This document shows, one piece after another, positions 652 to 56,744 of a DNA stretch of 64,000 nt. The stretch lies in IMG/VR virus record IMGVR_UViG_3300042270_000314; one strand, written 5' to 3'. The stretch is from a virus (lineage: Duplodnaviria > Heunggongvirae > Uroviricota > Caudoviricetes). Position 1 is the stretch's first letter. Each line of letters opens with the position of its first letter. The position numbers were made by a program, and so were the translations under genes. Under the pieces are notes generated by a model that saw nothing but the letters and a program-made list of their open reading frames with translations, did not search any database and was not told the DNA's origin.

Positions 652-877
652 AAATTTAAAGATAAATTTCAATTTCACCTGGGTCATTAAGAACTACACA
701 TTCAATAGAATCATTTTCTTCCATGTTTTCAAGAGCTTTTTCATATGAATAATAGGGGAAACTCTCTGTTTCAGTTCTAACAATCCACATAGTGATCATT
801 TTTATTTTCCTGGTTTATTGTTTGTTGATAAATTATTTATAAGTTAGGTCAAAGAACATGTAAACAAATTATTTTTG

Positions 878-950
878 AGCGGTTAGTCGGAATTGAACCG
901 ACATCTCCAGTTTGGAAGACTGAGATAATAACCATTATATGATAACCGCT
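878..950 (-). tRNA. tRNA-Gly (anticodon UCC)
   Basis: Hand-folded cloverleaf from the reverse complement: acceptor AGCGGTT/AACCGCT, T-arm GTCGG-TTCAATT-CCGAC, anticodon loop CTTCCAA. Confidence 0.6.
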
Positions 951-952
951 TT

Positions 953-1027
953 TGGTCAGAGTGGGAAGAATCGAACTTCCACTACGTGCGTCCAAGGCAC
1001 GGATGCAACCACTACATTACACTCTGA
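953..1027 (-). tRNA. tRNA-Gln (anticodon UUG), CCA encoded
   Basis: Acceptor TCAGAGT/ACTCTGA, anticodon stem CGTGC/GCACG with loop CTTGGAC, T-arm GGAAG-TTCGATT-CTTCC. Confidence 0.65.
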
Positions 1028-1046
1028 TTGACCATCCATAAAAATT

Positions 1047-1124
1047 TGGTACCCCCGGTAGGATTCGAACCTACACTGTTCAGCTTCTAAGGCTGCTGTC
1101 TCCTTCCAGTTGGACTACAAGGGT
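1047..1124 (-). tRNA. class-I tRNA with anticodon UAG (would read CUA/Leu) but a short variable arm; CCA encoded
   Basis: Acceptor ACCCTTG/CGGGGGT (two G-U pairs), T-arm GTAGG-TTCGAAT-CCTAC, anticodon stem CAGC/GCTG with loop CTTAGAA; identity uncertain. Confidence 0.5.
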
Positions 1125-1128
1125 AAAT

Positions 1129-1204
1129 TGGTGTATCTAGTCAGGGTCGAACTGACATAATCCGGATTGAAAGTCCGGTGCACTAACCATTATGCTATAG
1201 ATAC
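1129..1204 (-). tRNA. tRNA-Glu (anticodon UUC), CCA encoded
   Basis: Acceptor GTATCTA/TAGATAC, anticodon stem CCGGA/TCCGG with loop CTTTCAA, T-arm CAGTTCGACCCTG. Confidence 0.65.
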
Positions 1205-1206
1205 AT

Positions 1207-1281
1207 TGGAGCCTCCACACGGAACTGACCCGTGAACTAGGGGTTACAAATCCCTCGTTTTTCCAGTTAAACTATAGAGGC
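1207..1281 (-). tRNA. tRNA-Thr (anticodon UGU), atypical T-loop
   Basis: Acceptor GCCTCTA/TGGAGGC, anticodon stem AGGG/CCCT (A-C mismatch at 31-39) with loop TTTGTAA, T-arm CACGG-GTCAGTT-CCGTG. Confidence 0.45.
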
Positions 1282-1287
1282 GTAATA

Positions 1288-1345
1288 AGTAGAAAATACT
1301 GGCCTACGTCCAGTAGCGTTTTAGACTTCCACCGCTTATATTTCT
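1288..1345. other. tRNA-like or hairpin element (terminal 7-bp stem GTAGAAA/TTTCTAC around CTGG-CCTACGT-CCAG); too short for a canonical tRNA
   Basis: Perfect terminal inverted repeat plus an internal hairpin, directly abutting the tRNA cluster. Confidence 0.3.
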
Positions 1346-1565
1346 ACTAGATTTGTGTTTTTCTTCTATATACCTCGTATTCTTTTAAATACTTATTCAT
1401 ATACCTTTTGACTTGTGTATGGGAACAATTTCATAATTTGGAAACTTTATCTACCCAACCATATTTCGTCAAATCTATTCCAGATTTATCTAATAGTTCT
1501 CTTCTTTCGATTATTAAATTATTATTAAAGTTCCCTAATTTTAGAACTGTAGCTTTATCATGTAT

Positions 1566-2342
1566 TCATGTTATTGTGTGTTTTAAAATTTTTATTTTTT
1601 CTTTTTTGATATTTCTATTTCTATGAACGTCAGATTCAACACAACTATTTAAATCTATTCCCAATCTTTCTAATTGTTTCTTTTGTAAAATGCGTATTTT
1701 TTTATCTCTATTATATTGTATAACGTACTTCATTTTCTCTTTATCTGAATTCATGAATCATCCTTTAACTTCATGGTATTCATCCAAATCAGGTAAATAA
1801 AAATCTGGAAAGTAGTGTCTTTCTATTTTATTAAAATATTTTAATATGTATTTTCTTGAATGGACCCACTTTATATTTTGTTTATTAAGATATTCTGCAT
1901 ACTTAAACTCCCATGTACCTTGTACATTAACATAATCTTCTATATAGGGACAATATATTTTATAATATTTTGTTTTAACAAATCCAGAATTTGAAGATTC
2001 TTCTAGATTTTTTATTCTACCTTTTGAAATAGATTCTCTATGTTCTTTAGAGAGGTGTTTTCCTTTTAGTGGGTGTTTTATTTCTCCCGCATTATATCTT
2101 TTTATATATGTTTCTGCACCTTTAGCAACTCTTTCATCTGTTTCTTTTGTTAAACCCTTATTTCATTCTCTTTTTCCATCAAGTTGAGAATAACTTCTTT
2201 TGCCTTCTCTGTGTTCTCTTTTTAACGAGATTGATTTCTTTTTTCTATAATTAGGACATTGTGAAAATTTTTTTGAGCAACATCATTTTCCATTTTTAAA
2301 TTTATATTTAGCTTCTTGGCCGCACCCATATTCACATTTCAT
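1566..2342 (-). CDS. homing-endonuclease-like protein: N-terminal Cys zinc finger, NUMOD3-like motif (KGKHLSKEHRESISKG) and C-terminal nuclease-like region; 3 in-frame TGA
   Basis: Track ORF 1566..1754 extends upstream through TGA codons to ATG 2340-2342 (MKCEYGCGQEAKYKFKNGKW*CCSKKFSQCPNYRKK...EYHEVKGW*FMNSDKEK...); no TAA/TAG over 258 codons. Confidence 0.5.
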
Positions 2343-2421
2343 AATAGATATATTCTCCTTTGTTTGAACCTAAATATCTATTTATATTTTTAAAAAAGTA
2401 AATTGCGTTTCAACTAAAATG

Positions 2422-2508
2422 TGGCCCCGGTAGGGTTCGAACCTACACGCAGTTTTTTCCTGCCGAAAATTTTGAGTTTTCGTTGTCTTCCTATTCCAGC
2501 ACGAGGCC
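2422..2508 (-). tRNA. tRNA-Leu (anticodon CAA), class II with long variable arm
   Basis: Acceptor GGCCTCG/CGGGGCC, anticodon stem CGAAAA/TTTTCG with loop CTCAAAA, variable stem GCAG/CTGC, T-arm GTAGG-TTCGAAC-CCTAC. Confidence 0.65.
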
Positions 2509-2551
2509 ATATCTACTTCTTATCAAGGATTAACCATGTTGTAAACAAAAA

Positions 2552-2758
2552 CTATTCTCCAACTTCTTCACAGAATGGAATCTGTTCCCATTCAATTGCT
2601 GAAATATCTTCAGCCCTTACTGAGCAATTCTCAAACTGTAAAATCTTTGCTTTACCAGAATACCAATTATCATAAAGTTCAAAATATGTATCTTCATCAT
2701 ATTCTGCAGTAAGAATGTAACCATTTTTGAGATAAAGATCAACAGTATTCTTAGACAT
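2552..2758 (-). CDS. hypothetical small protein (likely starts at the MSKNTVDLY methionine, preceded by AGGAGA)
   Basis: Track ORF 2552..2788; internal ATG with a good RBS, so the start was adjusted. Confidence 0.4.
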   Translation of the reverse strand: MSKNTVDLYLKNGYILTAEYDEDTYFELYDNWYSGKAKILQFENCSVRAEDISAIEWEQIPFCEEVGE

Positions 2759-2797
2759 TATACTCTCCTTTAAACAGATTGTAAACAAAAAACTTTT

Positions 2798-2873
2798 TGG
2801 TGGAGCCAGGGAGACTTGAACTCCTAACCCCCTGCGTGCAAGGCAGGTGCTCTCCCAGTTGAGCTATGGCCCC
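2798..2873 (-). tRNA. tRNA-Ala (anticodon UGC), G3:U70 present, CCA encoded
   Basis: GGGGCCATAGCTCAACTGGGAGAGCACCTGCCTTGCACGCAGG...: canonical D-arm, anticodon loop CTTGCAC, acceptor GGGGCCA/TGGCTCC. Confidence 0.8.
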
Positions 2874-2880
2874 ATGTTTT

Positions 2881-2954
2881 TGCTCCGGGAGTAGGGGTTG
2901 AACCTACGACCGAGCGGTTAACAGCCGCTTGCTCTGCCACTGAGCTATCCCGGA
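2881..2954 (-). tRNA. tRNA-Asn (anticodon GUU)
   Basis: TCCGGGATAGCTCAGTGGCAGAGCAAGCGGCTGTTAACCGCT...: anticodon stem AGCGG/CCGCT with loop CTGTTAA, T-arm GTAGG-TTCAACC-CCTAC. Confidence 0.8.
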
Positions 2955-2964
2955 ATATTCAATA

Positions 2965-3372
2965 TTAAATTTTTAAAGGGCACCATTCAGGTACTTCTTT
3001 AGGTTCTTCGCTTTCATATTCTACATAACCAGTAATAAGTTTATTATTAACTGTGCATGTATAATCATACGCACACCCAGCATTAACTGTTACAGATTTT
3101 TTAACTTTAGGACACTGAAGACAACTTTCGACTTCCAATTTGATAGTGGTCATACCCTCATTTCTCCATTCGTAAATGTGGCCCATACACTTTAAGTATC
3201 CCCTATATGTTCCAGATAAAAACCACTTTGGAACAGTATGTGCTTTCAATTTTCTATATATACCATTCTCATCTACAACATACTCAAAAAATATTGTTAG
3301 GTTAGTATCATCTGTCTTTTCAATTACGCCGGTATGAAAAATTTTAACACCGTCCACATACAATATCAACAT
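2965..3372 (-). CDS. hypothetical protein (135 aa)
   Basis: Track ORF; no TGA interruption; Cys-containing. Confidence 0.45.
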   Translation of the reverse strand: MLILYVDGVKIFHTGVIEKTDDTNLTIFFEYVVDENGIYRKLKAHTVPKWFLSGTYRGYLKCMGHIYEWRNEGMTTIKLEVESCLQCPKVKKSVTVNAGCAYDYTCTVNNKLITGYVEYESEEPKEVPEWCPLKI

Positions 3373-3383
3373 ATTTTTTCCTC

Positions 3384-3602
3384 TTACTGATCCATTACCA
3401 TTTCAGTTTTTGCAGTAACATAGATCTCACCAGACTTAGATTTAATAGTAATATGGGATTTTGATACCTTAGTAACAATCCCGTGATAGAGAAAGTCAGA
3501 TGCACCTTTGTGCTTGCCTTTGTAAAACTTTACTTCATCACCTTTCTTAATCTTTTTGACTTCTGGGTCGATTTCTTCAAGCAAATATCTTTTTAAGTTC
3601 AT
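3384..3602 (-). CDS. hypothetical small basic protein (72 aa)
   Basis: Track ORF; a GTTTAC-N16-TATAAA sigma70-like promoter lies ~55 nt upstream (3650-3690, minus orientation). Confidence 0.45.
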   Translation of the reverse strand: MNLKRYLLEEIDPEVKKIKKGDEVKFYKGKHKGASDFLYHGIVTKVSKSHITIKSKSGEIYVTAKTEMVMDQ

Positions 3603-4167
3603 TAAGCCTATCCTTTAGTTTGTTTGAATAAAAATATATTTATAATAAACATAATTAATTGTAAACAAAAAATTTCTAATAACCGCAACTTCCATTATAA
3701 TGCTCCCACTCTTCTGCCTCTTCGCGCTTTCTTCTTTCCTCTAAAGATTCAGTGGGTTCATAGTCTTCATCCAAAAATTCATTCTTTTCCTGTTCTGCAC
3801 TTGTTAGCCATTTCTTATACATGATTATTCCTCTTCAAAAAATTTTTGTTTAAATTTGCGGCACTTTCTACGATCCTTTTCACGTTTCTTATCTTCATGT
3901 GCAACTGAGGGATTACGCATACAATGTCTTTGTTTAACCTTTACATCAAGAATACCATTTTCAAAAATTTCTTCGAAGAGTGCAGGATTAATTTTTCCCA
4001 TTTCTAAATCCTATTTAACTTTAGGGGTAGGTTTAAAATCTCTATTTCCAAAAATATATTGAACATAATTCAAAGGAAAAGACACTTTTCTATCTTTAAT
4101 AGAAAGAATAGCTTTATTGGATTTTGCTCTAAAAGAAATCTTCATAAACAAGCCCCTTATTTTTTTA

Positions 4168-4584
4168 TCTATTTTTAATAAATTTATAAAACAAACCAAA
4201 AAACATGTAAATCATAATTAATGGTGAAGGAAAAAATAATTTAATTTTATGACCTGTTCTTTCTAAAAATTCTTCTTTTGAAAGGGCCTCCCTAGTAAAA
4301 TTATCAAATCAATAACCATTAGCATAACCTACGGCGTGGCCTCCGCCAGATCGAGTTTTTGCAAAATATATTCTATATCTATGTAATATAAAAACATTTA
4401 AAATAAATGTAAATATATTTTTGTTACATGCATATCAAATAGATGTAAGAGCAAAATCTTCACAATCTCCGACCATAACATCTGATTTTTTCATAATATA
4501 CCATAAATCTGCAATGTAAATCTTTGGATCTTTCATATACTGAAATCTTTTACCTACAAAAGATACCGCATCCCTAATATTCAT
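4168..4584 (-). CDS. putative transglutaminase-like/permuted-papain cysteine peptidase (Cys..His motifs GDCEDFA and GGHAV), hydrophobic C-terminus; 2 in-frame TGA
   Basis: Hand translation MNIRDAVSFVGKRF...VMVGDCEDFALTSIW*YACNK...SGGGHAVGYANGYW*FDNF...; missed by the track because of TGA. Confidence 0.35.
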
Positions 4585-7991: not shown

Positions 7992-9989
7992 TTATACTTT
8001 AGCAAAAGTTCTTCGTGGAAACTCCCATTCTCTTCTTACTTTATTCATAGAAGAAACTGGAACAAAAAATCCGACAACTCTGCTAAACTTATCAATAATT
8101 TCTCCATTACAAATGGGACATATTTCTAAATCCCCAAAACTCATATGCCCATTTTCACATTTACTATAGATAGAATTTAATGCAAAATGCTCACATCCAG
8201 ATTTTACTGCGTAGTTAATTATCTCCTTGGCTTGTGTTTTTGTTATTTTTTCGCCCAACTGTGCATGTACTAAAGACCCACCAGTAATCAATTTATTATA
8301 TTTACCATCAATATCAAGTTTTTCCCAAACAGTTGCATCTTCCCACAATGGTAAAAATTGATTAGCATATAGTTTACATGGAACAAGCTCTTCGCCAAAA
8401 AGTAATTTATCTACATTACATAGTCTTACTGCATATGATTCACCAGGGATTTGTTCAATGTTGAATACATAACCCTCACCATTTGTAGAAAATTCTTTAG
8501 ACTTCTTATTTAGATGTATTAAAGATTGTTCTATAATATCATACTCTATATTAAATTTTCTCTCCATTGTTTTTTGACATTCTACTAATCCCATAATTCC
8601 AAATGTAGAAAAGAGCCTTTTTACATTTATCCACCCATTAGATATAAACTTTTGTAGGCCCTTGTTAGCCAACATTACAATAAGAGTTTTATGGGCTTTC
8701 AAAATATCCCTACTATCTTCAATTCTTTGGTTATATATCTTCCAAAAATCTTCAACAGATTTGGCTTCCAATGCAATGCGATTAAAGTTGATTGTTGCAA
8801 CTCTATGAGAACCTAAAGAAGATAGCGCGCCAGATCCAAAAGAGTTTGATTGCGTTCCCATATCAAATAATTCATTATCATTTACAAGGCGGCAACAACT
8901 GGCTATTTTTGTTCCCTCAGATAGAAAAATATTATATCTAAAAATATCCCTAGACGTAACATTTTCAAGAAAATCAACATCTTTAATCTTTTCATCATCT
9001 TTACTAAAATTTAATGTAATAACTGGGAATCTATATGGAGTACCATTGTTTAATGGATCTCCTTTATCAAAGAAATCAAGAAAGATGTTTTGAATCTCAT
9101 ATATATAATCTGTCATATATGAATAAAAATCATCTTTACTCCCTTCCCAAGTATCAGGAATAGGAAACATCCATTCAACTTCTTGTGAGACAAAATATTT
9201 CAATTTAACTTTATCAAAAATTGAAATATTCGTAAATGGACTTTCTGAAGAATTCCTTGAAAGGTGGTTTACAGAATGTACAAATTGTTGAAACTCATTT
9301 TCAAAATGTTTTCTACATTTGGGGTCATATAAGTTTTCAATTTTTAAATCCATATTATAGTATGCAAGTTTAGATACACATAGAAAAAAATCCCCAATAG
9401 CGCACGCGCCAGCCAAATTTGTAGCAAAATTATGTACTGTCTCACATAGTGCAGAAATGTATGAACTAATTCTTTTTGCAGGGCCTGATGGTAATTGTCC
9501 AAATTCTCTACCGATAGTTAATAACTTACTTGAATCCATTGCCCAGCAATAGGGAAGAAGAATGTTTGTAGAATCAGATAGACCAATAGAATAATCATAC
9601 ATATTAGAAGCAAGACGTTTTGCTCGAGCCTTGCCATACATTTCTTTCATTGTTCTATATAGATAATCAAATCCCACAACCTTTTTAATTGGTGCTATTG
9701 CTTCAGCATAAATACCAGCAATTGTTTTTTCATTTTTGTTAGAGTTATCATCAATAGAAACATCATTTAGTTGTTCGGAAATAACCTTTTCAATTACATG
9801 AATGAAATTAAAATGGTTAAAATCAATGCCATTTTTCTCAAGAATTTTCTCAGTAACTTCGTTATATCAATCATTATCTTTATCTGGAAACTTACGTTTG
9901 ATATTTGCCTTAAGTCCTTTAGCAATTTGTTTAATTGTTACTGTAGTATCTGCTTCGTTATAAAATGTTTGAGAAAAATTAAATTCCAT
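7992..9989 (-). CDS. nrdD: anaerobic ribonucleoside-triphosphate reductase NrdD (class III RNR); 1 in-frame TGA
   Basis: Track ORF 7992..9677 extends upstream through TGA to ATG 9987-9989 (MEFNFSQTFYNEADTTV...DKDNDW*YNEV...); C-terminal Zn ribbon CPICNG and glycyl-radical region SRVVGFFVPVSS. Confidence 0.85.
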
Positions 9990-11061: not shown

Positions 11062-11580
11062 TTAATTCAAAAATCCTCTTTCGATTTCATTACAAAGGAA
11101 ATCAATAAATGCTGTCTGCTCATCTGTAAAATTATATTTTGGATATGCCTTTTGATCTTTAAATTCGACCAAGGAATTTTTGAATTCAAAGCTCATAGCT
11201 CCCCAATCACAAACCATTTCAATAAGATCAATAAACATCATTTGTTTGATATCTTCAAAATATTCGGGATGGTGTCTATTTACGAATTTATGATGATCCC
11301 ATGCTTTAGTCATAATAGTATCATCTTCAGGTGTAAACTTATACCCAACCTTTCTATTATATTTCTCAGTCATCAAAATATAGCCCATCATTTCTTCAAT
11401 AGAAAATTTGGATTCATCATGTGCTTCGATTCGTTCTTCAAGTTCAGTTTTCGAAATAAACATATCATCTAAATATGACTTTGTTGCTTCATTAGAAAAA
11501 ATAAACTCAAAAACATCTTGAACATTCTTGATATGATTTTCTGTTCTCTCCTTGTAGTTCTTGAACATTTTACCTATCAT
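11062..11580 (-). CDS. hypothetical protein, possible HD-domain phosphohydrolase (HD...HH...HH motifs)
   Basis: EAHDESKF and WDHHKFVNRHHPEY motifs; weak. Confidence 0.3.
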   Translation of the reverse strand: MIGKMFKNYKERTENHIKNVQDVFEFIFSNEATKSYLDDMFISKTELEERIEAHDESKFSIEEMMGYILMTEKYNRKVGYKFTPEDDTIMTKAWDHHKFVNRHHPEYFEDIKQMMFIDLIEMVCDWGAMSFEFKNSLVEFKDQKAYPKYNFTDEQTAFIDFLCNEIERGFLN

Positions 11581-12178
11581 TTTTCAGCTCCCACCAATCT
11601 ACTTTATTGTCTCTAATATCTTCCCATGTGTCGGTCCATTCTTCATATATTGGTTTATTAGGAACATCATAAGGAAACTCTACCGGTAATCTGCTATAAT
11701 AATTTGTGAAATATGATTTATATGTTTCACCTGTTTTTTCATCAGTATACCATTCCCAAAACACTCTACCATCAATATTACAAGCCCTTCCGGTATCATC
11801 TTTAAATATAGTACTACATCTTTTATTCTGGCAAACACCTTCAGATACTTCATTCCACTCTTCATCTTTACCTGTAAGTGGACCTAAAGGTTTGAAATCA
11901 AATAATTTATTTAATGCGGTGATAGCATAACCAGCACTGAATCCAGAATGTCCTTCTTTAGCAAACTCAGTAACCATATGAATCAAGTGCCTTCTCATCA
12001 TACGATTCATATCATCTGGACTATTTTCTGTCATTCCGATATAATCAAGCTCGTCCATAGCATGACGTACTAATCTAGATTTTTCCGGTTTAAATGACCA
12101 ATTATCATTTGATTCCATTGTTTCATTTTCCACTAATTCGCTCGGTTCCATAAAACCTTCTACAGATGGGTCATTCAT
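11570..12178 (-). CDS. hypothetical protein (202 aa)
   Basis: Track ORF. Confidence 0.4.
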   Translation of the reverse strand: MNDPSVEGFMEPSELVENETMESNDNWSFKPEKSRLVRHAMDELDYIGMTENSPDDMNRMMRRHLIHMVTEFAKEGHSGFSAGYAITALNKLFDFKPLGPLTGKDEEWNEVSEGVCQNKRCSTIFKDDTGRACNIDGRVFWEWYTDEKTGETYKSYFTNYYSRLPVEFPYDVPNKPIYEEWTDTWEDIRDNKVDWWELKNDR

Positions 12179-12879
12179 TACTTTACTCCTTTATATATCA
12201 TATTATGTTTAGAACAATATCTTCTAATAGCTTCTATTGGAGCTTCATTAGGCGCAATTTCTTCACTTGTACCAATAATACCACCCTTCCAAGAACCTTT
12301 TTTTGGACCAGTCTCTTTGTTGAATTCTATATCTATATTTCTCCTAACAATAGGTTTAGTAAAATATTTTAACCAAGAACACCATTTCTCGCCTTTAGTC
12401 CACATTCTTTCTTCAATATAGCATGTAGCTTCAATTTCTTCACCATCATAATCTTCAAGAATAAATGTAACTTTTGGTAATCTAGAATATATTTTACAAT
12501 CTCTATCAATGTGTTTACCATATTCTACAGCAAGTTCATTATGATTTAAATCAAATATCTTATGATGTCTGAATGTATATTGGGTCCAAGGAAGAAAGAA
12601 TGATTTATAATTGTTATTCTTAATCTCTCCAAAATAATCTGGTTGATCCCCCCATTTAATCATTACATGACCATCAAAAACATAGAAACCATATTCTCTG
12701 CGTGCATAATAACTATAATTTCCGGCTGGTGAATGCATTTTATATTCTTTTGGTTTAATGATAGCAGGAATACTAAAATAATATGATCCTAACCTTATAA
12801 AGTTTCTATATTGTGATTCTTCTCCACCAGAACAAAATTCTAAACCAAAACTATCCAACTTACCTTCATATTTAATCAT
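12178..12879 (-). CDS. hypothetical protein (233 aa)
   Basis: Track ORF. Confidence 0.4.
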   Translation of the reverse strand: MIKYEGKLDSFGLEFCSGGEESQYRNFIRLGSYYFSIPAIIKPKEYKMHSPAGNYSYYARREYGFYVFDGHVMIKWGDQPDYFGEIKNNNYKSFFLPWTQYTFRHHKIFDLNHNELAVEYGKHIDRDCKIYSRLPKVTFILEDYDGEEIEATCYIEERMWTKGEKWCSWLKYFTKPIVRRNIDIEFNKETGPKKGSWKGGIIGTSEEIAPNEAPIEAIRRYCSKHNMIYKGVK

Positions 12880-12882
12880 TGA

Positions 12883-13626
12883 TTATTCCTCTAACAACTT
12901 CATCTTATTAAACTTTTTCTTTTCCTCTTCAATCTCTTCTAAAGTTTTATCACCTAAGATCAAGTTACCAGAGGGTGGGTCGGTGATCAATAAACTTTCA
13001 TTTACAATTTTTTCCATTTTCGTAAATAACTCCCATTCGTCTTTTACATAAGATCTGTATTTTGATATATTATTTAAGAAATCTGAAATTTTTTCTTTCT
13101 CATCTATAGATAATATTATATATTTTTTAAGTAGTAAATAAAGGAATGTATAAGGGTCAATATGACCCCGAATATAATCATTAACAACATTTAATGAAAA
13201 TTCATTTTTAGATTTACAATATTCTAATATTGAATTCCTTTGATCTTTCTTTAGAATTCCTTTCATGAATTTAAAACTTTTTAAAATTTGTTTTTTACAT
13301 GCTTCACAATGAAATTTTTGAATCTTATCATTTTGAATGTACTGCTTTAAAATTTTATCATTGAGGAAATTCGTATAAGTGAATTTTGGGAATAATTTGA
13401 ACCCCGTTTCAAGATACTTGATTGGATCAATATTTTGCCATTTGGTATTAAAATAATCTGAGAGTGTTTTAATCTTGTCATAGTTAGCTTGATTAGATTG
13501 TCTTAGCTTTTCTAATGAAAGATCAGGGTTCTTTGGTAGTCTATATGGTCTATTATTTATAATTCCTTTCATTTTGAGGTATTCTACATATAGAAATTCC
13601 ATTGTGATCATATGGTCTCCTAACAT
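12883..13626 (-). CDS. hypothetical protein (247 aa)
   Basis: Track ORF; first gene downstream of the 13740-13810 repeat module. Confidence 0.4.
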   Translation of the reverse strand: MLGDHMITMEFLYVEYLKMKGIINNRPYRLPKNPDLSLEKLRQSNQANYDKIKTLSDYFNTKWQNIDPIKYLETGFKLFPKFTYTNFLNDKILKQYIQNDKIQKFHCEACKKQILKSFKFMKGILKKDQRNSILEYCKSKNEFSLNVVNDYIRGHIDPYTFLYLLLKKYIILSIDEKEKISDFLNNISKYRSYVKDEWELFTKMEKIVNESLLITDPPSGNLILGDKTLEEIEEEKKKFNKMKLLEE

Positions 13627-13859
13627 ATTAAAATTATTAGTTAAAATTTAAAAATCTTGAAAACTAGGAAAAACTCTCAAAATACTAATATAATATACAC
13701 AGTTTTTTCATAATTTCTGGATTTTTCATATAAGTTATTGAAATCATTAGATATTCATAAAACTTGGTGGATTCCTAAGTTATTGAAATAGTTAGATAAT
13801 TTATTTTATCCTCTTTTTTAGAGTTTTCCAGATGTTTTTATTATAAATGAGAAATTTAA

Positions 13860-13900
13860 CTTGTAAACCTTAAAAATTCTTTGTTTACAATTGATACCGA
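13860..13900 (+). promoter_or_regulatory. sigma70/T4-early-like promoter GTTTACA-N17-ATAAAT pointing into the GC-rich non-coding island
   Basis: tttGTTTACAattgataccgaagtagaTAAATTat seen directly. Confidence 0.35.
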
Positions 13901-13959
13901 AGTAGATAAATTATTTTATAAATAAGTTTAATTGATATTTGAATAGGTGGAATTAAGAG

Positions 13960-14560
13960 TTTGGACTTGCTAGTTGGTTAAGAGCTAATTAGTGAGCGCT
14001 TGGTAAAATATTTCCGAGTGAGGACGACTTCTTCATAAAATGTTTGTCCCATTGTCAATGACAATGCAAGATCCGCCCCTGAAGCAACCAAAGGGGATGT
14101 ATGAATTTCACGCGAGTGACTTTTGTGTCAATTTGACTCATGCTAGGTCCAATCCCTTCATGAGCCACCGGCATAAATGCCCAGCAGACGTTATCCTAAA
14201 GCCATCTGCTGGAGAGGATAGAATCCGACTGTACTAGTTTCTTGTAACGATTTTGATTTTTGCTAGTGTTCTTAGTGATCAAAATTTATTAACGGGAAAG
14301 GGAAGATCGTTTTGTAGATTGGGAGCATATGAATGCCCAAGAAGTTCAGATCAAACTAGACCATACCTGAACTTGGCTTAATCAACCAAACAGAACGTAG
14401 GAAAACATAAGGAACCTCGCCGCAATGCATACTGTTTCAAAGCTCTTTTGTGGGGTAATGAGAACGGGATGTGTTTGGCAGGAAATTGAATGTTTCTTCT
14501 TAGATTAAATTAGTCTAGGTAAGTCACGTTCAATTTCCTGCCGAATGCATTGATAGAATA
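13960..14560. ncRNA. GC-rich (~45% vs ~28% background), hairpin-dense non-coding island; candidate structured RNA (group-I-intron-like, RNase P or tmRNA not resolvable by eye)
   Basis: No ORF >65 aa in any frame even with TGA as sense; multiple long perfect stems (CCCCT...AGGGG; CCAGCAGA...TCTGCTGG; CCAAGAAGTTCAG...CTGAACTTGG; 14-bp GGCAGGAAATTGAA...TTCAATTTCCTGCC). Confidence 0.4.
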
Positions 14561-14629
14561 TATATAAAAAATTTTCTATATTATTATTTTATAATTTATT
14601 ATGGGTGGATTAGAATCTAAATTTGAAAT

Positions 14630-15064
14630 CTAAAGCTCAATAGCAATATCATCTACGAATACTGAATTTGATGTTTTCATTTGAATAGAATACATTTCAA
14701 ATCCATTTGCAGCAACTATTTCTTCAATATTCTTAATCTTTTTTCTTCCAAATAATATACTTGAAATATTGAGTTTTTTTGCTTTGACTGCTGTATTGTT
14801 GACTAGGATAAGTTTGGTGTCATGGGAAACTTGAAATGCAAAACCATCTTCAAGTGTGATTTTGATTAATGATGGTACTTTTTCTTCTTCGATTAGTAAT
14901 ACAGGGGAAAACCCTTTTAATGTAGTTAATTCAAGAAATTTTTTGTTTAGTTCTTTTTTCTTATAAACAAGATTTTTGAGTAGATCAATTCTGATTTTGA
15001 AAATGTTGTTTTTTCCTGCTTTGACAGTAACCATTGATCCCCTGTGAACAAGACATGTTTTCAT
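14630..15064 (-). CDS. free-standing Hint/intein-like domain protein (MKTC-LVHRGSMVTV block-A-like, VSHDTKLIL block-B-like; lacks terminal HN)
   Basis: Track ORF; ends with a true TAG; located just downstream of terL. Confidence 0.4.
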   Translation of the reverse strand: MKTCLVHRGSMVTVKAGKNNIFKIRIDLLKNLVYKKKELNKKFLELTTLKGFSPVLLIEEEKVPSLIKITLEDGFAFQVSHDTKLILVNNTAVKAKKLNISSILFGRKKIKNIEEIVAANGFEMYSIQMKTSNSVFVDDIAIEL

Positions 15065-15098: not shown

Positions 15099-18000
15099 TT
15101 ATGTGTTCATTCAAGATCAGTCTGCATTTTCAAGATAGTGATCATCATCAATGTCTGCTAGAATCCCTCATACATCCTCATCTTCTTCTTTGTTTTTAAA
15201 TAGGTCAACATCATCTTCAAAAAGTTGAGTATCAATAAGGAAACATAACCAATAAAGAGCCGAGACAAGGTCATCCCCGGTGTCTGCGCTTGAAGAAAAT
15301 TTTCCGTTTTTTTCAATGAATGTTGAAATTTGTTTAGCTGTTTCCCTATCTTTAACTATTAGTGATCCATCTTCAATGAGTTTCTTCATTGTAATAACAG
15401 CTTTTGTCTTTGATGAAGAAGTTGCTCTAATGCCAATCTCGTTTTCTTTGTTTCCTGAATTATAAAGGTTTGGGTTTTCAAAGACCCACCAAAGATTCTG
15501 TGAAACTGTGGATCCTTCAGCATTATTCTCAATACCGATAATAGCATCATTATAGTAAATTGATAATCTATTAATGATAGAAGAAAGTTCATAGGTGTCA
15601 GTAACATTGGACTGGAATGTTGCTGCATTAACTAATTTTACTGGTTTAAATGAATCTATTCTATAAATTTGTATACAAGCATCATGAGCTCCCGATCCTT
15701 TAGACGGATCAACACCGATGAGATATTTTTCTCCATCTTTTGGTTTAAGATAAACCCTAAGTCTTTCATTAAGATCCATAGCAATGGGGTCTTCTAGAGT
15801 AGTGTTAATATATCCAATGGCTTCAGTGGAAACAACGGTATTTGATGACCCAAGAAACTCGACCTCAAATTCCTGGTTGAACTTCTGTATGTTTCCCATG
15901 TTTTTAATTTGTTTTTCTTTTCATTTTTTATTTCTACCAGGTATCATGTCCCAAGTGACTTTCATATGCTTGTATTCGTTTTTACTTGTTTCAGCTCCAG
16001 AATAAATTTCATGAAAGAGATTGAATACACCATTTGGAGTAGAAATAATAATAATTTTTGCTTCATCAGAAGATGAAATTGCTGGATAGACTGAAGTATA
16101 AAATTCTCTAGCAATGTTATCTGAGACGAAGGCTAGCTCGTCGAGGAGAAGCATTGAACAATTGTGTGATATTACACCATTTGTTCAATATGATTGTGTG
16201 TCTTGTACATTCAATGCGTCGAAAACTTCTATATCATCCCATTGATATTCTTTTTCTAATACTGTTGTTTTTGGAAAAAGAATATCACCAACAATAATAT
16301 CTTTAGCTTCTTTAAAAGTAATACCATCAGACAAAAGAAATTTGTGATTATGTGTGCAATCTATAGTTTCATTGGTTGATAAATCAAATTTTATCAATGT
16401 TGATTTTCCTTGATTTATAAACCCATCAAATGGTTTAAATCCTTTGTGTGTTAATATTTCCATTACTTTCTTCCTATTGATCATCCTTCTGGTAAGTTTT
16501 TATCTTTATCATACATTTTTATTTCTTTTGTTTTTACATTATGAATTCAAATAGTATTTTTTCTGGACTCTTTCTTTTTCCCTGTTCCTTTCAATCAACC
16601 ATCTGGGATTTCATGATTTTTACTGATTTGTATAGTTTCTAATGTTAGGGGATTATATATATGAATTTTACCCTTATTTGGGGCATCCTTTCCTATTCGC
16701 GAATTTGATATACGCTTTCGAGTTACTTCACTTCTTTTCATACCCCTATGTTTTTCTGCTGTTTTTCGAATTTTTTCAGGATTTCTATTTATTTTATCAA
16801 CTCATTCATCTGATTTTTTATGACCCTTTAAAGAGTTACTTAATTTTTTATTTCTTTCTTCTGTAAATGTTTTATTATATCATGTATTATATTCTTCTAA
16901 ATTCATGTTTGTAAATTTTAAAAGTCTACTTGTAGATATATTTTTTCTATGTTCTAAAGAAAGTCTTCTTCCTCTTAATTTATTTGATAATTTTTGTCTT
17001 GTTTCTTTACTTACTGGAGGTCTATTTTTAAGAGCTTTTATTTGTTTTTCCCTATATTCATTGTTTTTTCATCTTTCTTTCGATGATATAGAAATTAACT
17101 TTTTGGCTTTTGGAGTATGTTTATAATTTCTAGATTTTTCAGAAATGAGCTTTTTTGTTTTATCAGAATGTTTTCTGCCATAAAAGCCATTTGCTTCTCC
17201 ACATAAAATACACACATTACCACCCAATGATAAATTATAGTTTGAGTTATCTTTAACAAACTCTTCATTCACAAGTTCCCTTTCCAATAATTCTGCATCT
17301 TCTTTATTATCAAACACCATTATAATTTCTCTTTTAAAATTTTCTGGTCCATATTTTTCAATAGCTCTTCTTATATATTTTCCAGACCCCAAATACCCAT
17401 CATCCAAATCATTTGTAGAATGGAACCCTATATAGTATTTCCCATTAATTAAATTTGTCGTTTTATACACCATATAATATTTTTTAGTATTTTTGAAATT
17501 CATTTCATCTCCCATAAATCTATTTATATTAGATGAAATTGCTTTTGTTTTTTCTATGGTTGTATAAAAAATATCTCCATTATCATCACACACACAAACT
17601 TTTGTATATTTGGGAACACAGGATCTCCCACGGAATGTGTCTTCAGTTGTTCCAGCAGTTTCAATTTTAGATCCATTTTCAAATTCAATGGAATTTTTGT
17701 TATATTCTATAACCCCAGGTTTTAATCAAAAAGGCAGCTCCTCATACATAATCTTAATACGTCTAAGAAGATCTTTTGCTGAACTTGCTTTATTAGATGC
17801 AATTCCGATGAATTTATCAGAATTAAAAATTGCATATCAAAGAGCAAAAGCCCCTACTGTAGTTGAATTGTGACTCTTTATACCATTAGTATAATAACAT
17901 TCCCCATCAACATCTAAACAATCATACATATTAGAAAATGTGTTTAGTTTTTCAATACTAGAAATTTCTATATCACCATTTTCTGTTTCTATAAAATTGC

Positions 18001-18568
18001 CTGCACTTAAATCTTTGACATAAATTTCTTTATTATTTGAAAATAAAATATGATTATCTGCACATATTAATTCTATACCATTTGATAATGATACTTTATA
18101 TTCATCATATTCAATAGTTTTGCCAACCCCAGAAAAATCTTTTCACCCTTCTGGGGTTCATATTTCATAATCTTCACAGAAACGCTTTTCAACAAATTTA
18201 TCATCTATATTAAAAGAAGATATTGTTAATTTATCAAAAAATTCTCCAATAGTTAGTTCTTCCTCTATTCCAGTTTTTTTGTTTCTAATTTTTATTTTTG
18301 TGTCCCAAGAAACGCACTTTCCCGATTGTCTGCAGAACAAGAAAACCAAATAACGATTGTCTTTACACATTTTAATCATTTTTTTCTGAAATGGGTAAAG
18401 AAGATCCCCTAATTTTTTCCTGCCACCATCGATAGTAACAATAGTAACAAAATTAAGAAAATACAAAACATCTTCTGAACACCTAACAAGATCTGATATC
18501 ATCTCAGGTGTATATTCATTTTCCATTCCTGGGGTCTTTACAAATTTATCATCGTATCTAATTGACAT
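15099..18568 (-). CDS. terL: large terminase subunit (T4 gp17-like) interrupted by two inteins; several in-frame TGA; frame break inside intein 2
   Basis: N-terminus LYPFQKKMIKMCKDNRYLVFLFCRQSGK then intein 1; extein STTVGAFALWYAIFNSDKFIGIASNK...LPFW*LKPGVIEYNKNSIEFENGSKIE matches the T4 gp17 region TVVAIFLAHF...[23 protein letters not shown]; after intein 2 the extein CSMLLLDELAFV (Walker B)...IIIISTPNG...nuclease domain IGVDPSKGSGAHDACIQIY...DDLVSALYWLCF. Confidence 0.8.
16161..17620 (-). mobile_element. intein 2 of terL (begins CVPKYTKVCV, ends VISHN|C): N-terminal part fused in frame to a complete GIY-YIG endonuclease with NUMOD3 repeats ending at TAA 16464-16466; blocks B and F/G follow in the -1 frame from ~16484
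   Basis: GIY-YIG YYMVYKTTNLINGKYYIGFHSTN...YLGSGKYIRRAIEKYG; NUMOD3-like GRKHSDKTKKLISEKS, GMKRSEVTRKRISNSRIG; I-TevI-like tail IPDGW*LKGTG; block B IDCTHNHKFLLSDGITFKEAKDIIVGDILF; block F/G VFDALNVQDTQSYW*TNGVISHN. Confidence 0.6.
17867..18316 (-). mobile_element. intein 1 of terL: ~150-aa mini-intein inserted in the Walker A P-loop (GK|C...SHN|S)
   Basis: CVSWDTKIKIRN (block A), GIELICADNHILF (block B), MYDCLDVDGECYYTNGIKSHN (blocks F/G) then +1 Ser; contains 2 TGA codons. Confidence 0.7.
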
Positions 18569-18653
18569 ATTAAAAGCCTTTTCATAGTTTGATTTATTTA
18601 TATAAATATTATAAACATCAAGTGAATCATAAAATTCTGGAGGAATTTAACTC

Positions 18654-27178: not shown

Positions 27179-29130
27179 CTACCTTGCATACCTATAAACT
27201 AAACACCCACAATCCCAAATTCTATCAAATCCATTCATTTGCATATTTTCCCATTCAGTAAGATTAGGATCAAAATCCTTTAATAAACTTGGTAATTTAT
27301 GTTTCATATAAACGGATCTATGTACCAACTTCCCATTAATAATGTACCAATAGGACGGAGCACTCTTATGACTAAATTCAAACCCAAGTTGTTCATATAA
27401 ATTACCATTAGACCATCTACGATCTGCATAGGAAATTATTTCTTCAAATTCATTGTTTCTAACAAAGTGTTTAAATAATTTACTTGCTCCCCCAATGACT
27501 TGTGTATTAAGTTTATTACAAAATCTTAAAAGCTCAAGTTTAGTTTTTCCTGTTATTTTTCTCTTACCAAAAGTCATACATGAAACAAGTTCATCATTAT
27601 AAAAAAGCCCATATCTAATAGACGAATTACAATATCCTTGGAGGTGATTTTGAAGAAGAAAGATATTAGATTCTTCAAAAGTAAGAGATCTTATTTCGCA
27701 TTTTCTAGCATATATTCTATTTTCAAAAATACCCAACTTAGAAAGAAGTGCAGATTTAACTATAGATTGTTTATCTTTCCATTCCGTTTCAAATATATGA
27801 ATAAGTTGAATATTATTTTCATCACAAATATCTGTCTTATTTATATGATATTTTTTATTTTTATTTCCTGAAATTTCAGAATGATAATATATACCATCAT
27901 ATTCAATCCCCAAATTGGAATTTGGAATAAAGATATCTATCTCAAGACCATCTAAAATTTCTTTATTTCCCCTGCGATGATTAATATTCAAAAATTTTGC
28001 TATTTCGTTTTCTGCCTTACTAGTTCCTCCCTTAACTCTACAGGAACAAGAAACTCCTTTATTTATTAATTCTATAGATAATGGTCTGATATTTTTACAT
28101 CTTAAACATTTAACATCGGTCGTTTTTAGAGGACTAAGAGCAAATTCATATCTAGATGCTATCATTTCATAATCATTATCTTTACAATAATTATATATTA
28201 ATGGATATTTTTTAAATCTCGCAATAATATTACTATGTTTATTTCCACAATTAGTACAATAGCTTCTATAACCATTTCTTAATAATGGTGTTTTCTCTTT
28301 TTTACAAATATAACATATTCTTTCTTTTGGATTATTATTTAGAATAAGGTAATATATTTCTCTATGAGTAAAATCCGCATAATAGATGTTTATACTTTTA
28401 TATAATTTTGGGGACTTGTTAAGAATTTTTATGGCAACATTTTGAAAATCATAATTGAATTTAGCTAAAAATAAAAGAAAAATTTTATTGGTTCTTTCTA
28501 ATGAATAAACTTTAATATCTGAAGATTTTAAAATTTTAATTCCTCTATTATTTCTTTCCTTTTTAACATCTTGGTTAGGATCACGTTTTCTTATTAAATC
28601 TGGATTATTTATAGCACATATTCTTGAACAAAATTTTCTATATCCCCATGACTCTAATAATGTGTTAAATGGTAATATATTTCCACAAAGAGGGCATACA
28701 GGAATATTTTTTAAATTAAAAACATAATGGAATATTTTTTGAGATAATATACTGTTAGTAATATTGGATTTAATGTCATTAAAAAACAATTCTATTTGTT
28801 GTATTGTTTTTGGATATTTGTTTTTTAATATTTTAATATATCTTTTGGGGTATTTAACTCTTAATTCTAAAATTTCCTCTTTTGTTAATATAATATCAGT
28901 AGATTCATTAAGAAGTGCTTTTTCATTTCCAATTTTTTCTCTATATATTTGAGACTTAGTCATACATTCATATGAACAATATTGTATATTATGTTTTCCT
29001 TTACTTAAAAAAGGCTCACCACATTCTAGACATAAATCATGATAATAATATGTACCATCATTACCTCTAAAATTTCCTCTATTGCTTAATTTAATATTAT
29101 GTTTTTCTAGATTGTCTCAACAAATAATCA
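27179..29130 (-). CDS. large homing-endonuclease-like protein: multiple Cys zinc fingers plus a Vsr/DUF559-like nuclease motif (LGIEYDGIYYHSE); ~650 aa, 1 in-frame TGA
   Basis: Track ORF 27179..28963 extends upstream through TGA to ATG ~29128-29130 (MIICW*DNLEKHNIKLSNRGNF...CLECGEPF...). Confidence 0.5.
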
Positions 29131-29176
29131 TGATAGTCTACTCCCATAGAATTTGAAATTTAAAGAGAAGTTAGAG

Positions 29177-29222
29177 GGATGTGGGAGCAACCCTCAGCAC
29201 TGGCCGGTGTTGTCCTTCTCCA
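29177..29222. other. GC-rich hairpin GAGGGatgtgggagcaaCCCTC followed by CTGGCCGGTGTTGTCC motif (paralog of the 7923-7983 element)
   Basis: Seen directly between the sheath gene end and the endonuclease-like gene start. Confidence 0.4.
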
Positions 29223-29267
29223 TTAAATTTAAAGATAAGATATTTTATTTATATTGTAAATAAAAAA

Positions 29268-31208
29268 TTAAGAAACCGCACCTGCTCCAATTAGTTCATC
29301 GAAGTTAGCCCCAGTTTTTGTTGCGATAAAGTTAAGCCGGATAAACTCGACTGCTCTGGCGGGCTGGATCCATATATTCCCAACTAGCTCGTTACGATCA
29401 ATTCTTTCTGGGGTATTAGTTGTTTCATCAATCTGGACCTTGAAGGCATAAATGCCACGGCGGCCCTGAATATCACGAAGGAAAGGCTCAATCATATTGG
29501 TCATTAACATCCAAGTAATTTCATCGTTCATCTCGAATAAAAAGTATTTGGCACTTTTTGCGATGGCTTTTTCCAATATGAGGAACAACCTGCGAACATT
29601 AATTCTATTAAATGCACTCTGTTTATCTAATAGGGTCTTCTGTCCTCAAACTACTTTGCCCTGACCACTAAAAGAAACAACAGGGTTAATTCCTGCAACA
29701 TACATTGCATCTCGATTTCCTTCAGTAGGATTAAAAGCAAGTCTACGAACACCAGTTAGAATAGCTCTATTCAATCCAGCAGGTGCTCACCATGCATCAG
29801 CTACATCATCTGTATGAGCATATAGACCAGCCATATGACCGGAGAGAGGAAGCCAACGATATTTTTTGTTCCAAGTATCAAATACTTCGATCCAGTTACC
29901 ATATAGAGCAGCATATGAAGTATTAGGATTAAATGTAGAACCAGCTTGTCCTTTTCTCCATTTTACCATATCTAATGTTTCAGAACCTTTGTTGTTTAGA
30001 ACATGGGATCTTAGAACATCAAGTACAACAAAACAATCTCTACGAATTGATTCACAAAGCTCTACAAGGTAGGTTTTTACAGTTACACCCTTATCTGATT
30101 CGATAAAGAGATTGACATCAATTTCTTCAGGATTAGCATAAAGATTATATGCTTCAATACAAGCAGCATCTTCACCAGCCTGAACAGTTACATCTTCATG
30201 TCTTCCAAATACACCATTCTTTCCACCAGAAAGGGTGGCCATACGAGTCATAATGGCCCCAATCGCGGGCGAATCAATTTCTGTAGTTGTTTTAAAGACA
30301 GGATTCAAAGCTACATTAATATACTTTGACTGTTCATTTACAACAGTCTCAACAAAATTAGAAACGCCGGAATCATCAATTGAATTTTCATCAGAAGAAA
30401 CAATGAAGACCTCTTTGTCTTCCCATATTGTTGAACCCTGATCTTTAGCTTGGACTACGATTGTGAATTGTTTTTCATCAGTCATAGGAGTATCGAGATC
30501 ACGAATTACAACAAATGGAAGATCATCCTGGTAACCAGGAGTTCCAAAATCGGGATTAGCTTCATAATCTACCCACATTCCAGATACTGCTGCCGTAGCT
30601 GAAGCAGTTAAAGATACGCCAGAAGGAATATCAAATGTTTCAGTCTGTGTATCAAAATACTTAACAGCATCATATGTGGCCTTGTCATAAACAAGTAAAC
30701 GAGTATTGTTTCCAAATTCACCACGATATTTAGCAAGTACCCAAAGTGGGTCATCTTCACCCATTAAAGTGTCTACCATTTCAGGGAACATCTTCATATC
30801 AGTTGTTCCTAATGAGGTATAGGTATAAGGACCATCATCTTCAGTTCCTTCAACAGTTCCAGTAGCTTCAAAAGTGAAGTTAGCAGTGGCTTCCTGGGTA
30901 GAATTTGTTCCAGTTAAAATTTTTGTACCAGCAAAAGTAGCATCAGTAGGCATAACCCTTGTACAATAGAGCATGCTTCCATATTTAAGATATCCTGCAG
31001 AAGACAGAATATCAATAAAAGAACTATCAGCAGGTTTACCAAATGCATCAATAAGTTCATCTGTATTTGTTACTAAATACTGTTCGTATTCAGGGCCTTT
31101 GTATGTTTTTCTTAGGACGTTTACAGCAATAGAAGTTGCTACTGCAGGAATTGTGGTGCTTAGATCCACTTCCCTCGTCGCCACGCCCGGCGAAATTCCG
31201 AAACTCAT
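29268..31208 (-). CDS. gp18: tail sheath protein (T4 gp18-like), ~646 aa, 2 in-frame TGA
   Basis: Track ORFs 29787..31208 and 29268..29588 are joined through two TGA codons; C-terminus VVW*GQKTLLDKQSAFNRINVRRLFLILEKAIAKSAKY...IDETTNTPERIDRNELVGNIWIQPARAVEFIRLNFIATKT matches the conserved gp18 C-terminal domain. Confidence 0.85.
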
Positions 31209-56568: not shown

Positions 56569-56589
56569 AATGTTTTCCTTTGAAGATTG

Positions 56590-56663
56590 TACCCCTACCA
56601 AGATTTGAACTTGGGACATTCCGGTTATGAGCCGGGGGTTCTAACCAACTGAACTATAGGGGT
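56590..56663 (-). tRNA. tRNA-Met (anticodon CAU; elongator or Ile2-type)
   Basis: ACCCCTATAGTTCAGTTGGTTAGAAC...CCGGCTCATAACCGG...GTTCAAATCTTGGTAGGGGTA; A1-U72 paired, so not an initiator. Confidence 0.65.
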
Positions 56664-56666
56664 AAA

Positions 56667-56744
56667 TGGTGACCCTGACAAGAATCGAACTTGTGACATC
56701 GAACTTAGAAGGATCGTACTCTATTCCAACTGAGTTACAGGGCC
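56667..56744 (-). tRNA. tRNA-Arg (anticodon UCU), CCA encoded
   Basis: GGCCCTGTAACTCAGTTGGAATAGAGT...CGATCCTTCTAAGTTCG...ACAAGTTCGATTCTTGTCAGGGTCACCA; one U-U mismatch in the anticodon stem. Confidence 0.55.

Follow-up and report, generated by a model that had tools for sequence, protein, structure and literature searches.

A candidate gene for a large structured non-coding RNA beside the terminase module of TGA-recoded T4-like phages

The island and its versions in related phages

The tailed-phage record IMGVR_UViG_3300042270_000314 (Caudoviricetes), analysed here over a stretch of 64,000 nucleotides (nt) that we call the window, contains a gap of 1,003 nt between two minus-strand genes (12883-13626 and 14630-15064). 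Judged by its conservation, the middle of this gap, the island, appears to be a non-coding RNA gene kept for the elaborate fold of its plus strand. A sequence-only reading had taken the island for a candidate structured RNA with its own early-type promoter, and both parts of that proposal gained support, from covariation above controls and from a -35 element that is invariant in six of six genomes. The island stands out in base composition: 13955-14554 has ~41% G+C (GC) versus ~29% for the phage, windows of 200 nt across 13900-14499 give GC values of 0.355-0.44 compared with 0.22-0.25 just upstream and 0.24-0.29 downstream, and the 500-nt bin 14001-14500 (0.416) ranks second among the 128 bins of the window. 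The higher GC first noted by eye is thus real (0.355-0.44 versus 0.22-0.29 in the flanks). The other non-coding gaps longer than 250 nt in the 64 kb are only two tRNA regions and one AT-rich gap; the tRNA clusters are also the sole other GC-rich non-coding regions.

Five further versions of the RNA were found in related T4-like phages from metagenomes, in which TGA is read as Trp, with pairwise identities of 74-83%, and all homologues occupy one slot, between the large-terminase (TerL) module and the gene for a gp59-type helicase loader. Relatives of the divergently transcribed neighbour of 242 amino acids (aa) are 48-84% identical to it, and their contigs carry a non-coding gap of 920-1,020 nt in the same place. 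This gap comes right after TerL in L012, between a 143-aa gene and the gp59-like gene in L013/L014/L015 (a 164.7-kb landfill contig), and between a 144-aa gene and the gp59-like gene in L019, while in L016 it is cut by the contig end; L026 was added by a conserved-block scan of JGI metagenomes, which returned two contigs. One related contig set came from the municipal landfill biofilm metagenome IMG 3300028601. Homology across the whole ~600 nt was confirmed by blastn and nhmmer. The homologue search used an nhmmer profile in place of a full-length covariance model; its match in the window spans 13951-14553, and it finds no second copy of the RNA there.

Because the phage reads TGA as sense, open reading frames (ORFs) were sought with TGA, TAG or TAA as a sense codon. 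With TGA as sense, the longest stop-free run of the island in any frame is 82 codons, and nothing ORF-like appears under the other recodings. The corresponding runs in the six homologues (53-97 codons) are unrelated to each other, variable columns are spread over the three codon phases as 88/79/80, which means that there is no codon periodicity, and indels between homologues are not multiples of three. The earlier statement that the island contains no ORF therefore holds (at most 82 stop-free codons, no periodicity, non-triplet indels).

Within the data that were reached, all six distinct sequences of the RNA family come from one narrow clade. In IMG/VR, four invariant blocks matched only two landfill contigs, apart from one chance match (L041), and scans of the same resource with each of the two flanking proteins singly returned nothing. 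In 185,579 GTDB species genomes there were four chance 17-mer matches, in genomes of 42-58% GC, without extended similarity, and blastn against GenBank phages at E 1e-5 and E 10 gave only chance matches of 23-30 nt in unrelated protein genes. An exact look-up of the 144-aa neighbour retrieved nothing but copies of this very phage; being identical to it, they are of no use for covariation. TerL relatives ~45% identical have no island and a different gene order (TerL followed by gp13-gp15), the contig of a relative 72% identical ends right after TerL, and distant gp59-like homologues (28-36% identity; L021-L023, L034-L040) show neither an upstream gap nor an nhmmer match. A large screen of IMG/VR for structured RNAs accepted a motif only from three or more IMG/VR regions and yielded motifs of ~67 nt on average; since only two IMG/VR contigs carry the present RNA, it is unlikely to be in that set.

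Fold, covariation and transcription signals

Folded as a single sequence, the plus strand of the island has a minimum free energy of -189.9 kcal/mol (z = -5.8 against dinucleotide shuffles) and the minus strand one of -152.2 kcal/mol (z = -2.3); in six of six homologues the sense strand is more stable than the antisense strand by 20-36 kcal/mol. The consensus structure was obtained with RNAalifold from a six-sequence alignment (A4) of 626 columns and consists of 158 predicted pairs in ~20 helices, of which 43 pairs show at least one double-sided compensatory change. Two controls were used, 500 column shuffles and registers slid by ±1-3 columns. Canonical pair cells amount to 96.8% as observed, versus 90.1% in the shuffles and 38-49% in the slid registers; the corresponding numbers of pairs with a compensatory change are 43, 20.1 ± 2.8 and 3-11, and the covariation scores 0.308, 0.172 ± 0.010 and 0.052-0.068. 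None of the 500 shuffles reaches the observed value on any of the three measures. Comparison of the fold with homologous phages, which had been suggested as a check of the original proposal, thus came out in its favour (43 of 158 pairs against 20.1 ± 2.8). Many G-U pairs are invariant, for example in H4 and H10, and these would be A-C mismatches on the opposite strand. Together, compensatory pair changes and strand-specific G-U pairs indicate selection on RNA folding.

Both stems quoted in the sequence-only reading are present in this structure. The pair GGCAGGAAATTGAA/TTCAATTTCCTGCC is the core of a conserved 22-bp helix (14468-14489/14530-14551), and CCAGCAGA/TCTGCTGG lies within a helix (14181-14192/14200-14212) that covaries across phages, from CAGCAGA/TCTGCTG to CAATGGA/TCCATTG and CAATAGA/TCTATTG. 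The overall architecture is summarized in Table 1. H9 is wholly absent from L012, where a 25-nt deletion removes it, and is hence a dispensable peripheral element. As many as 311 of the 626 columns are invariant, 138 of them unpaired, and the invariant stretches of 7-14 nt fall partly in loops and junctions. Among the long blocks invariant in the six sequences are AAACAGAACGUAGG, ACCUCGCC and AUGCAUACU; several invariant blocks carry the self-complementary motifs CUAG, GUAC or AUGCAU, the last of which is an invariant palindrome at 14425-14430. A search for pseudoknots among the unpaired columns gave three candidates of 5-6 bp, all of them invariant and so beyond the reach of covariation.

Table 1. 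Elements of the predicted RNA gene and its control region (positions in the window)
Feature	Position	Strand	Remarks
Direct repeats, consensus CTAAGTNNTTGAAATAATTA	13731-13753, 13776-13798		two copies (+), 45 nt apart; 5' region of the gp59-like gene
Divergent sigma-70-like promoter, TTTACA-16-TATAAT	13840..13867	-	11/12 matches; directed towards the gp59-like gene; GTAAAC invariant 6/6
Early-type promoter, GTTTACA-N17-TAAATT (or N16-ATAAAT)	13883..13912	+	reads into the RNA; TTTGTTTACA invariant 6/6
Putative late promoter TATAAATA	13917..13924	+	invariant 6/6 with variable flanks; predicted start ~13930
Conserved core of the predicted non-coding RNA	13955..14554	+	~600 nt, ~20 helices; alignment A4, RNAalifold
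H1	13959-13964/14386-14391	+	closes the 430-nt 5' domain; hairpins H2 and H3 follow
H4	14021-14032/14301-14313	+	closes the inner multi-branch junction with H5-H14
Invariant element GGGGAUGUAUGAA	14093..14105	+	mostly unpaired junction
Invariant element CCGACUGUACUAG	14225..14237	+	single-stranded junction with palindromes GUAC and CUAG
H15, H17		+	both 5' of the 3' strand of H1
Hairpin H17	14342..14374	+	covarying stem pairs; 17-nt loop 14350-14366
Invariant 12-mer UCAAACUAGACC in the H17 loop	14351-14362	+	contains the palindrome CUAG
Highly conserved 3' core	14380..14433	+	AAUCAAC.AAACAGAACGUAGG, H18 hairpin, ACCUCGCC, AUGCAU
3' domain		+	H18, H19 of variable length, 22-bp H20
H20, long terminal hairpin	14468..14551	+	22-bp stem with inner hairpin; conserved 3' end of the RNA
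AT/U-rich tail, putative termination zone	14555..14600	+	weak; T-runs within ~10 nt past H20 in L012 and L026

Over the alignment of the whole intergenic region, conservation begins abruptly at AAGAGUUUGG (13955) and stops after H20. Upstream of this point three motifs, GTAAAC, TTTGTTTACA and TATAAATA, are invariant in all six genomes amid variable AT-rich sequence. The early-type promoter proposed before does exist, reads into the island and has a -35 element invariant in six of six genomes; only its position had to be corrected, from 13860-13900 to 13883-13912. The window contains 11 sites of the form GTTTACA-N16/17-TAnnnT, and in nine the spacer is exactly 17; this form looks like the early promoter class of the phage, similar to the T4 early type; one such site is situated upstream of the tRNA cluster, at 2786-2757 (-). 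In the window, the octamer TATAAATA, the T4 late-promoter consensus, also precedes the start codons of TerL, the gp23-like capsid gene, portal-region genes and others, at distances of 21-51 nt; the copy at 13917 has no ORF downstream. At the level of motifs, an invariant octamer that is also used before late genes points to a T4-type late transcription unit. Other examples of the two promoter classes occur at 18601 (+), 19939 (+), 23785 (+), 24985 (+), 18595 (-), 2379 (-) and 37088 (-). In three homologues the octamer follows TTTACA by 14-16 nt, so that early and late promoters overlap, and in the other three an insert of ~12 nt separates them. It precedes H1 by 7-38 nt, a distance that fits a transcript start just before the structure.

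On the other side, the divergent minus-strand promoter marks the boundary of the RNA transcription unit. The two CTAAGTNNTTGAAATAATTA repeats sit in the control region that the RNA gene shares with the divergent gp59-like gene. All six genomes conserve both copies, and the variable NN positions of the repeats change together within a genome (TCC/TCC in L016). This pattern suggests a shared DNA- or RNA-binding regulator, or else iteron-like sites; the repeats are probably a regulator-binding or operator element.

A large phage RNA and the alternatives

The most plausible reading, to which we assign a probability of about 0.6, is that ~13930-14580 (+) encodes, as a stand-alone gene, a highly structured non-coding RNA of ~600-630 nt not described before, acting in trans as a ROOL/GOLLD-like particle. 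The RNA is best described as a new class within a known kind, the large ornate phage non-coding RNA. As it runs opposite to both neighbours, it is not a leader, a 3' untranslated region (UTR) or an antisense RNA of a gene. It would be transcribed early from a promoter of the host sigma-70 type and late from a T4-type late promoter, and in this way would be made throughout infection and accumulate as a compact, stable, trans-acting particle. It possibly works as a folded architecture, perhaps a homo-oligomer, like ROOL and GOLLD, a proposal that we make by analogy and with modest confidence; a folded, possibly oligomeric particle is favoured because these are the RNAs that it most resembles in kind. 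Through its invariant loops and junctions, several of them with CUAG, GUAC or AUGCAU, the RNA might form tertiary or intermolecular contacts, or it might bind a factor of the host or the phage. Action by base-pairing to mRNA is unlikely. More tentatively, and with rather less than even odds, the RNA could be a third independent class of ornate phage RNA, belonging to a TGA-recoded T4-like lineage, that relies on its invariant junctions and palindromic loops to form a higher-order RNA-only assembly or a ribozyme and performs, early and late, a lytic job without a known protein equivalent.

The sequence-only reading could not place the island among tmRNA, RNase P or group I introns, and that failure stands, with no Rfam match at E <= 10. 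At gathering thresholds, Rfam 15 found only tRNAs in the whole window; at E <= 10, slices of 1.1 kb and of 651 nt, the latter with the laxest filters, matched none of the models for ROOL, GOLLD, OLE, RNase P, tmRNA and introns, and the five homologous loci gave nothing relevant at E <= 1. ARAGORN reported tRNAs only and no tmRNA. Some miRNA and snoRNA models of Rfam matched the long terminal hairpin far below their gathering scores and were rejected as spurious. Membership in ROOL was rejected for want of a covariance-model match and with the nearest tRNA genes (877-2954) ~11 kb off. GOLLD likewise had no covariance-model match, and ~600 nt compares with a usual length of >800 nt; OLE had none either, and the neighbours here are a gp59-like gene and a Hint-like ORF, with no oap-like genes. 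A group I or group II intron was discarded on the lack of an Rfam match and on the flanking genes, which are complete and on the opposite strand, with no exons or split gene. The earlier note had named a lack of both Rfam matches and conservation as grounds for giving up an RNA; the first applies, whereas conservation is strong.

Resemblance to these RNAs is therefore one of kind. ROOL and GOLLD are phage-encoded RNAs of 580-800+ nt without a known function; kissing loops, some of them palindromic, join them into multimers made of RNA only (PMC12286853, PMC5737381), and ROOL has a mean length of 581 nt (PMC5737381). Like ROOL, which phages or prophages encode, the present RNA is phage-borne, of similar size (~580 nt in ROOL), rich in multistem junctions, stand-alone and not cis-regulatory; ROOL itself multimerises without protein by kissing loops and A-minor contacts. 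ROOL has ~10 highly conserved nucleotides as opposed to the invariant 7-14-nt blocks seen here within a narrow clade, and differs in host range and phage type, the present RNA coming from T4-like TGA-recoded phages of landfill and other metagenomes. With GOLLD, whose expression rises in lytic growth and which self-assembles into a nanocage with palindromic loop kissing, it shares the large ornate phage RNA and a variable internal linker region, but GOLLD is usually >800 nt, often lies next to tRNAs or around them, and is unrelated in sequence and structure. OLE is similar in its ~600 nt and its long near-invariant stretches between covarying helices, and dimerises by symmetric loop contacts; unlike the RNA described here, it is chromosomal, belongs to extremophilic or anaerobic Bacillota and acts with the OapA/B/C proteins at the membrane. 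The phi29 pRNA is another structured phage RNA that multimerises by loop-loop pairing, and the gene described here lies beside the TerL packaging module. Yet pRNA has 120-174 nt, occurs in phi29-like podophages with protein-primed genomes and shows no similarity in sequence or structure, and T4-type terminase motors need no RNA, the adjacency to TerL being a module boundary.

Several observations weigh against the reading of a ROOL/GOLLD-like trans-acting particle. H1 and H4, the long-range helices, show almost no variation and hence carry little covariation, and the palindromic loop motifs are invariant as well, which means that intermolecular pairing gets no support from covariation. With six sequences from one narrow clade, the counts of compensatory pairs do not convert into significance of the R-scape type. 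A scan for consensus or simple terminators in the window copy found no clean intrinsic terminator, which makes the 3' end the least certain boundary of the RNA. Unlike ROOL and GOLLD, the gene is not beside tRNA genes (the nearest are ~11 kb away). Transcription of the RNA is predicted from the promoter motifs and the terminal hairpin, its stability is a prediction too, and a role as oligomer or scaffold is drawn by analogy.

Other explanations have to be weighed against the same data. The RNA might be a counter-defence molecule, a decoy or sponge that ties up a signalling molecule, nuclease or immune sensor of the host, with its gene bordering an anti-defence cluster: in the window phage the genes for Acb3 and Tad3 lie 0.75-2 kb away in the divergent operon, and an early-type promoter would suit an immediate-early role. 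However, Acb3 and Tad3 are absent from this place in the other RNA-bearing phages, so that the association is not conserved, the RNA has no similarity to a known defence-system RNA in Rfam, and PADLOC finds nothing in the neighbours; we regard such a role as unlikely. An element of a replication origin is less likely still. In that case the GTTTACA transcript would form an R-loop or primer, as in the T4 oriF/oriG or ColE1 RNA II type, the gp59-type loader would act on it, and the repeats would be iteron-like; the likeness lies in a promoter-driven non-coding transcript of several hundred nt beside replication functions, here the loader gene. Those RNAs, however, are R-loop primers in cis without an ornate, conserved architecture of the tertiary type, whereas the present one ends in its own conserved long hairpin, has ~20 helices and invariant loops that far exceed the needs of primer positioning, and folds on itself so strongly that a persistent R-loop is disfavoured. 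Its late TATAAATA promoter would be unexpected, T4 origins firing early or middle, cumulative GC skew has no clear switch at this site alone, and gene 59 in T4 itself is not beside an origin.

We think it very improbable that the models missed a highly divergent member of ROOL, GOLLD, OLE, RNase P, tmRNA or the group I/II introns. The ~600 nt, phage origin and ornate multi-junction architecture of the RNA are like those of ROOL, a TGA=Trp host would fit lineages with ROOL, and the motif ACAGAAC is reminiscent of CR-V of RNase P. These points are to be set against the lack of any match at E <= 10 for the 651-nt slice or at E <= 1 for the five homologues, and the lack of an ARAGORN tmRNA, of flanking exons or a split gene, and of nearby tRNAs. 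Least credible of all is that the island is no RNA gene but a long UTR or cis-regulatory region belonging to a neighbouring gene, a decayed protein gene or foreign DNA. The GC of the island does differ from that of the genome, and there is an ORF of 65 codons with an ATG start at 14040-14237; in the homologues this ORF is broken by non-triplet indels, including the 25-nt deletion in L012, codon periodicity is missing while compensatory changes and strand-specific G-U pairs are present, both neighbours are on the opposite strand, and no GTDB genome or GenBank phage shares the sequence. The sequence-only reading had itself allowed for acquired foreign DNA or a host gene fragment, which we abandon given the missing coding signal, the mere chance 17-mers in GTDB and the slot conserved in related phages.

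To our knowledge, very few structured non-coding RNAs of bacteria and phages reach 500 nt; apart from rRNA, RNase P, tmRNA and introns they are essentially OLE, GOLLD, ROOL and HEARO. Each of these large RNAs is biochemically unusual, and recent cryo-electron microscopy (cryo-EM) has revealed RNA-only nanocages and dimers. A class of ~600 nt would give a new opportunity to learn what large phage RNAs do. It offers strong covariation, unusually long invariant single-stranded elements, a defined (if predicted) early/late transcription unit and a fixed position in T4-like genomes, and its modest size suits in-vitro transcription, chemical probing and cryo-EM. That it occurs in a single clade of recoded phages provides a clear comparative framework, although the narrow distribution also tempers the interest. 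Should the RNA prove ordinary, a clade-specific stable RNA without a phenotype, the cost of finding out would be low.

Neighbouring genes and the phage

The phage is a deep-branching T4-like myophage with ~29% GC and genetic code 4, also present as a 137.5-kb JGI contig; in TerL and in a recombination nuclease it shares ~27-33% identity with T4-like phages of Campylobacter and cyanobacteria, and public gene calls nearby include Gp23, Portal_T4, NrdD and NrdG. In-frame TGA codons in the terminase and its intein mean that the phage reads TGA as sense, and ORF fragments seen under translation table 11 are merged in the public gene calls. In-frame TGAs were observed in the TerL/intein, NrdD, capsid, portal and sheath genes (15099-18568 (-), 27179-31208 (-), 7992-9989 (-)). 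At 1-2 per gene they are scarce; only the stretch with the intein and homing endonuclease has more, namely 10. Two in the sheath gene stand in the context …VV-X-GQKT…, where Trp is typical of sheath proteins, which points to code 4. The ten tRNA genes form two clusters, one at 877-2954 (-) with Gly, Pro, Leu, Glu, Thr, Leu, Ala and Asn, and one at 56589-56744 (-) with Met and Arg; none of the ten has a UCA anticodon.

The conserved context of the RNA gene runs from the TerL module through the RNA to the genes for the gp59-like protein, DUF5662, NrdG and NrdD, with both immediate neighbours on the strand opposite to the RNA. The TerL gene (15099-18568 (-)) is interrupted. An ORF of 701 codons comprises the N-terminal part of TerL, Hint-like segments and a GIY-YIG/NUMOD3 homing endonuclease, and it overlaps by ~20 nt an ORF of 461 codons with an intein splicing domain and the Terminase_6C nuclease domain; group I intron models give no match in this gene. 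In the TerL relatives of ~45% identity (L007, L009), TerL-N, the NUMOD3 endonuclease and TerL-C are three separate genes. Between the RNA and TerL lies the 144-aa ORF 14630-15064 (-), which starts M-x-x-C and is absent from L012. A weak intein-splicing (Hint) signal was seen in two of the five members of its family, and its AlphaFold2 (AF2) model is all-beta and of low confidence (pLDDT 52). It may, as far as such models go, be a free-standing Hint-like protein beside an intein-containing terminase. As a partner of the RNA it was rejected, in view of the poor AF2 model, an intein-splicing signal that is only weak and the lack of RNA-binding evidence.

On the other side, Acb3 (a CBASS inhibitor; Pfam E 3.6e-51) and Tad3 (a type I Thoeris inhibitor; E 1.7e-37) are adjacent to each other at 11570-12879 (-), and in the window phage they follow the gp59-like gene in the operon divergent from the RNA gene. 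Other RNA-bearing phages have small unknown ORFs or an R2K ATP-grasp gene where Acb3 and Tad3 sit; because of this replacement in related phages, the position is a variable accessory slot. Finally, the 164.7-kb landfill phage (L013/L014/L015) has a TnpB / Cas12f1-like_TNB gene of 393 aa at 3298-4479 (-), between TerL and the 143-aa gene and ~0.6 kb from the RNA. The other phages carry the RNA without TnpB, so that this gene is a recent insertion of the IS200/IS605 type, unrelated to the RNA.

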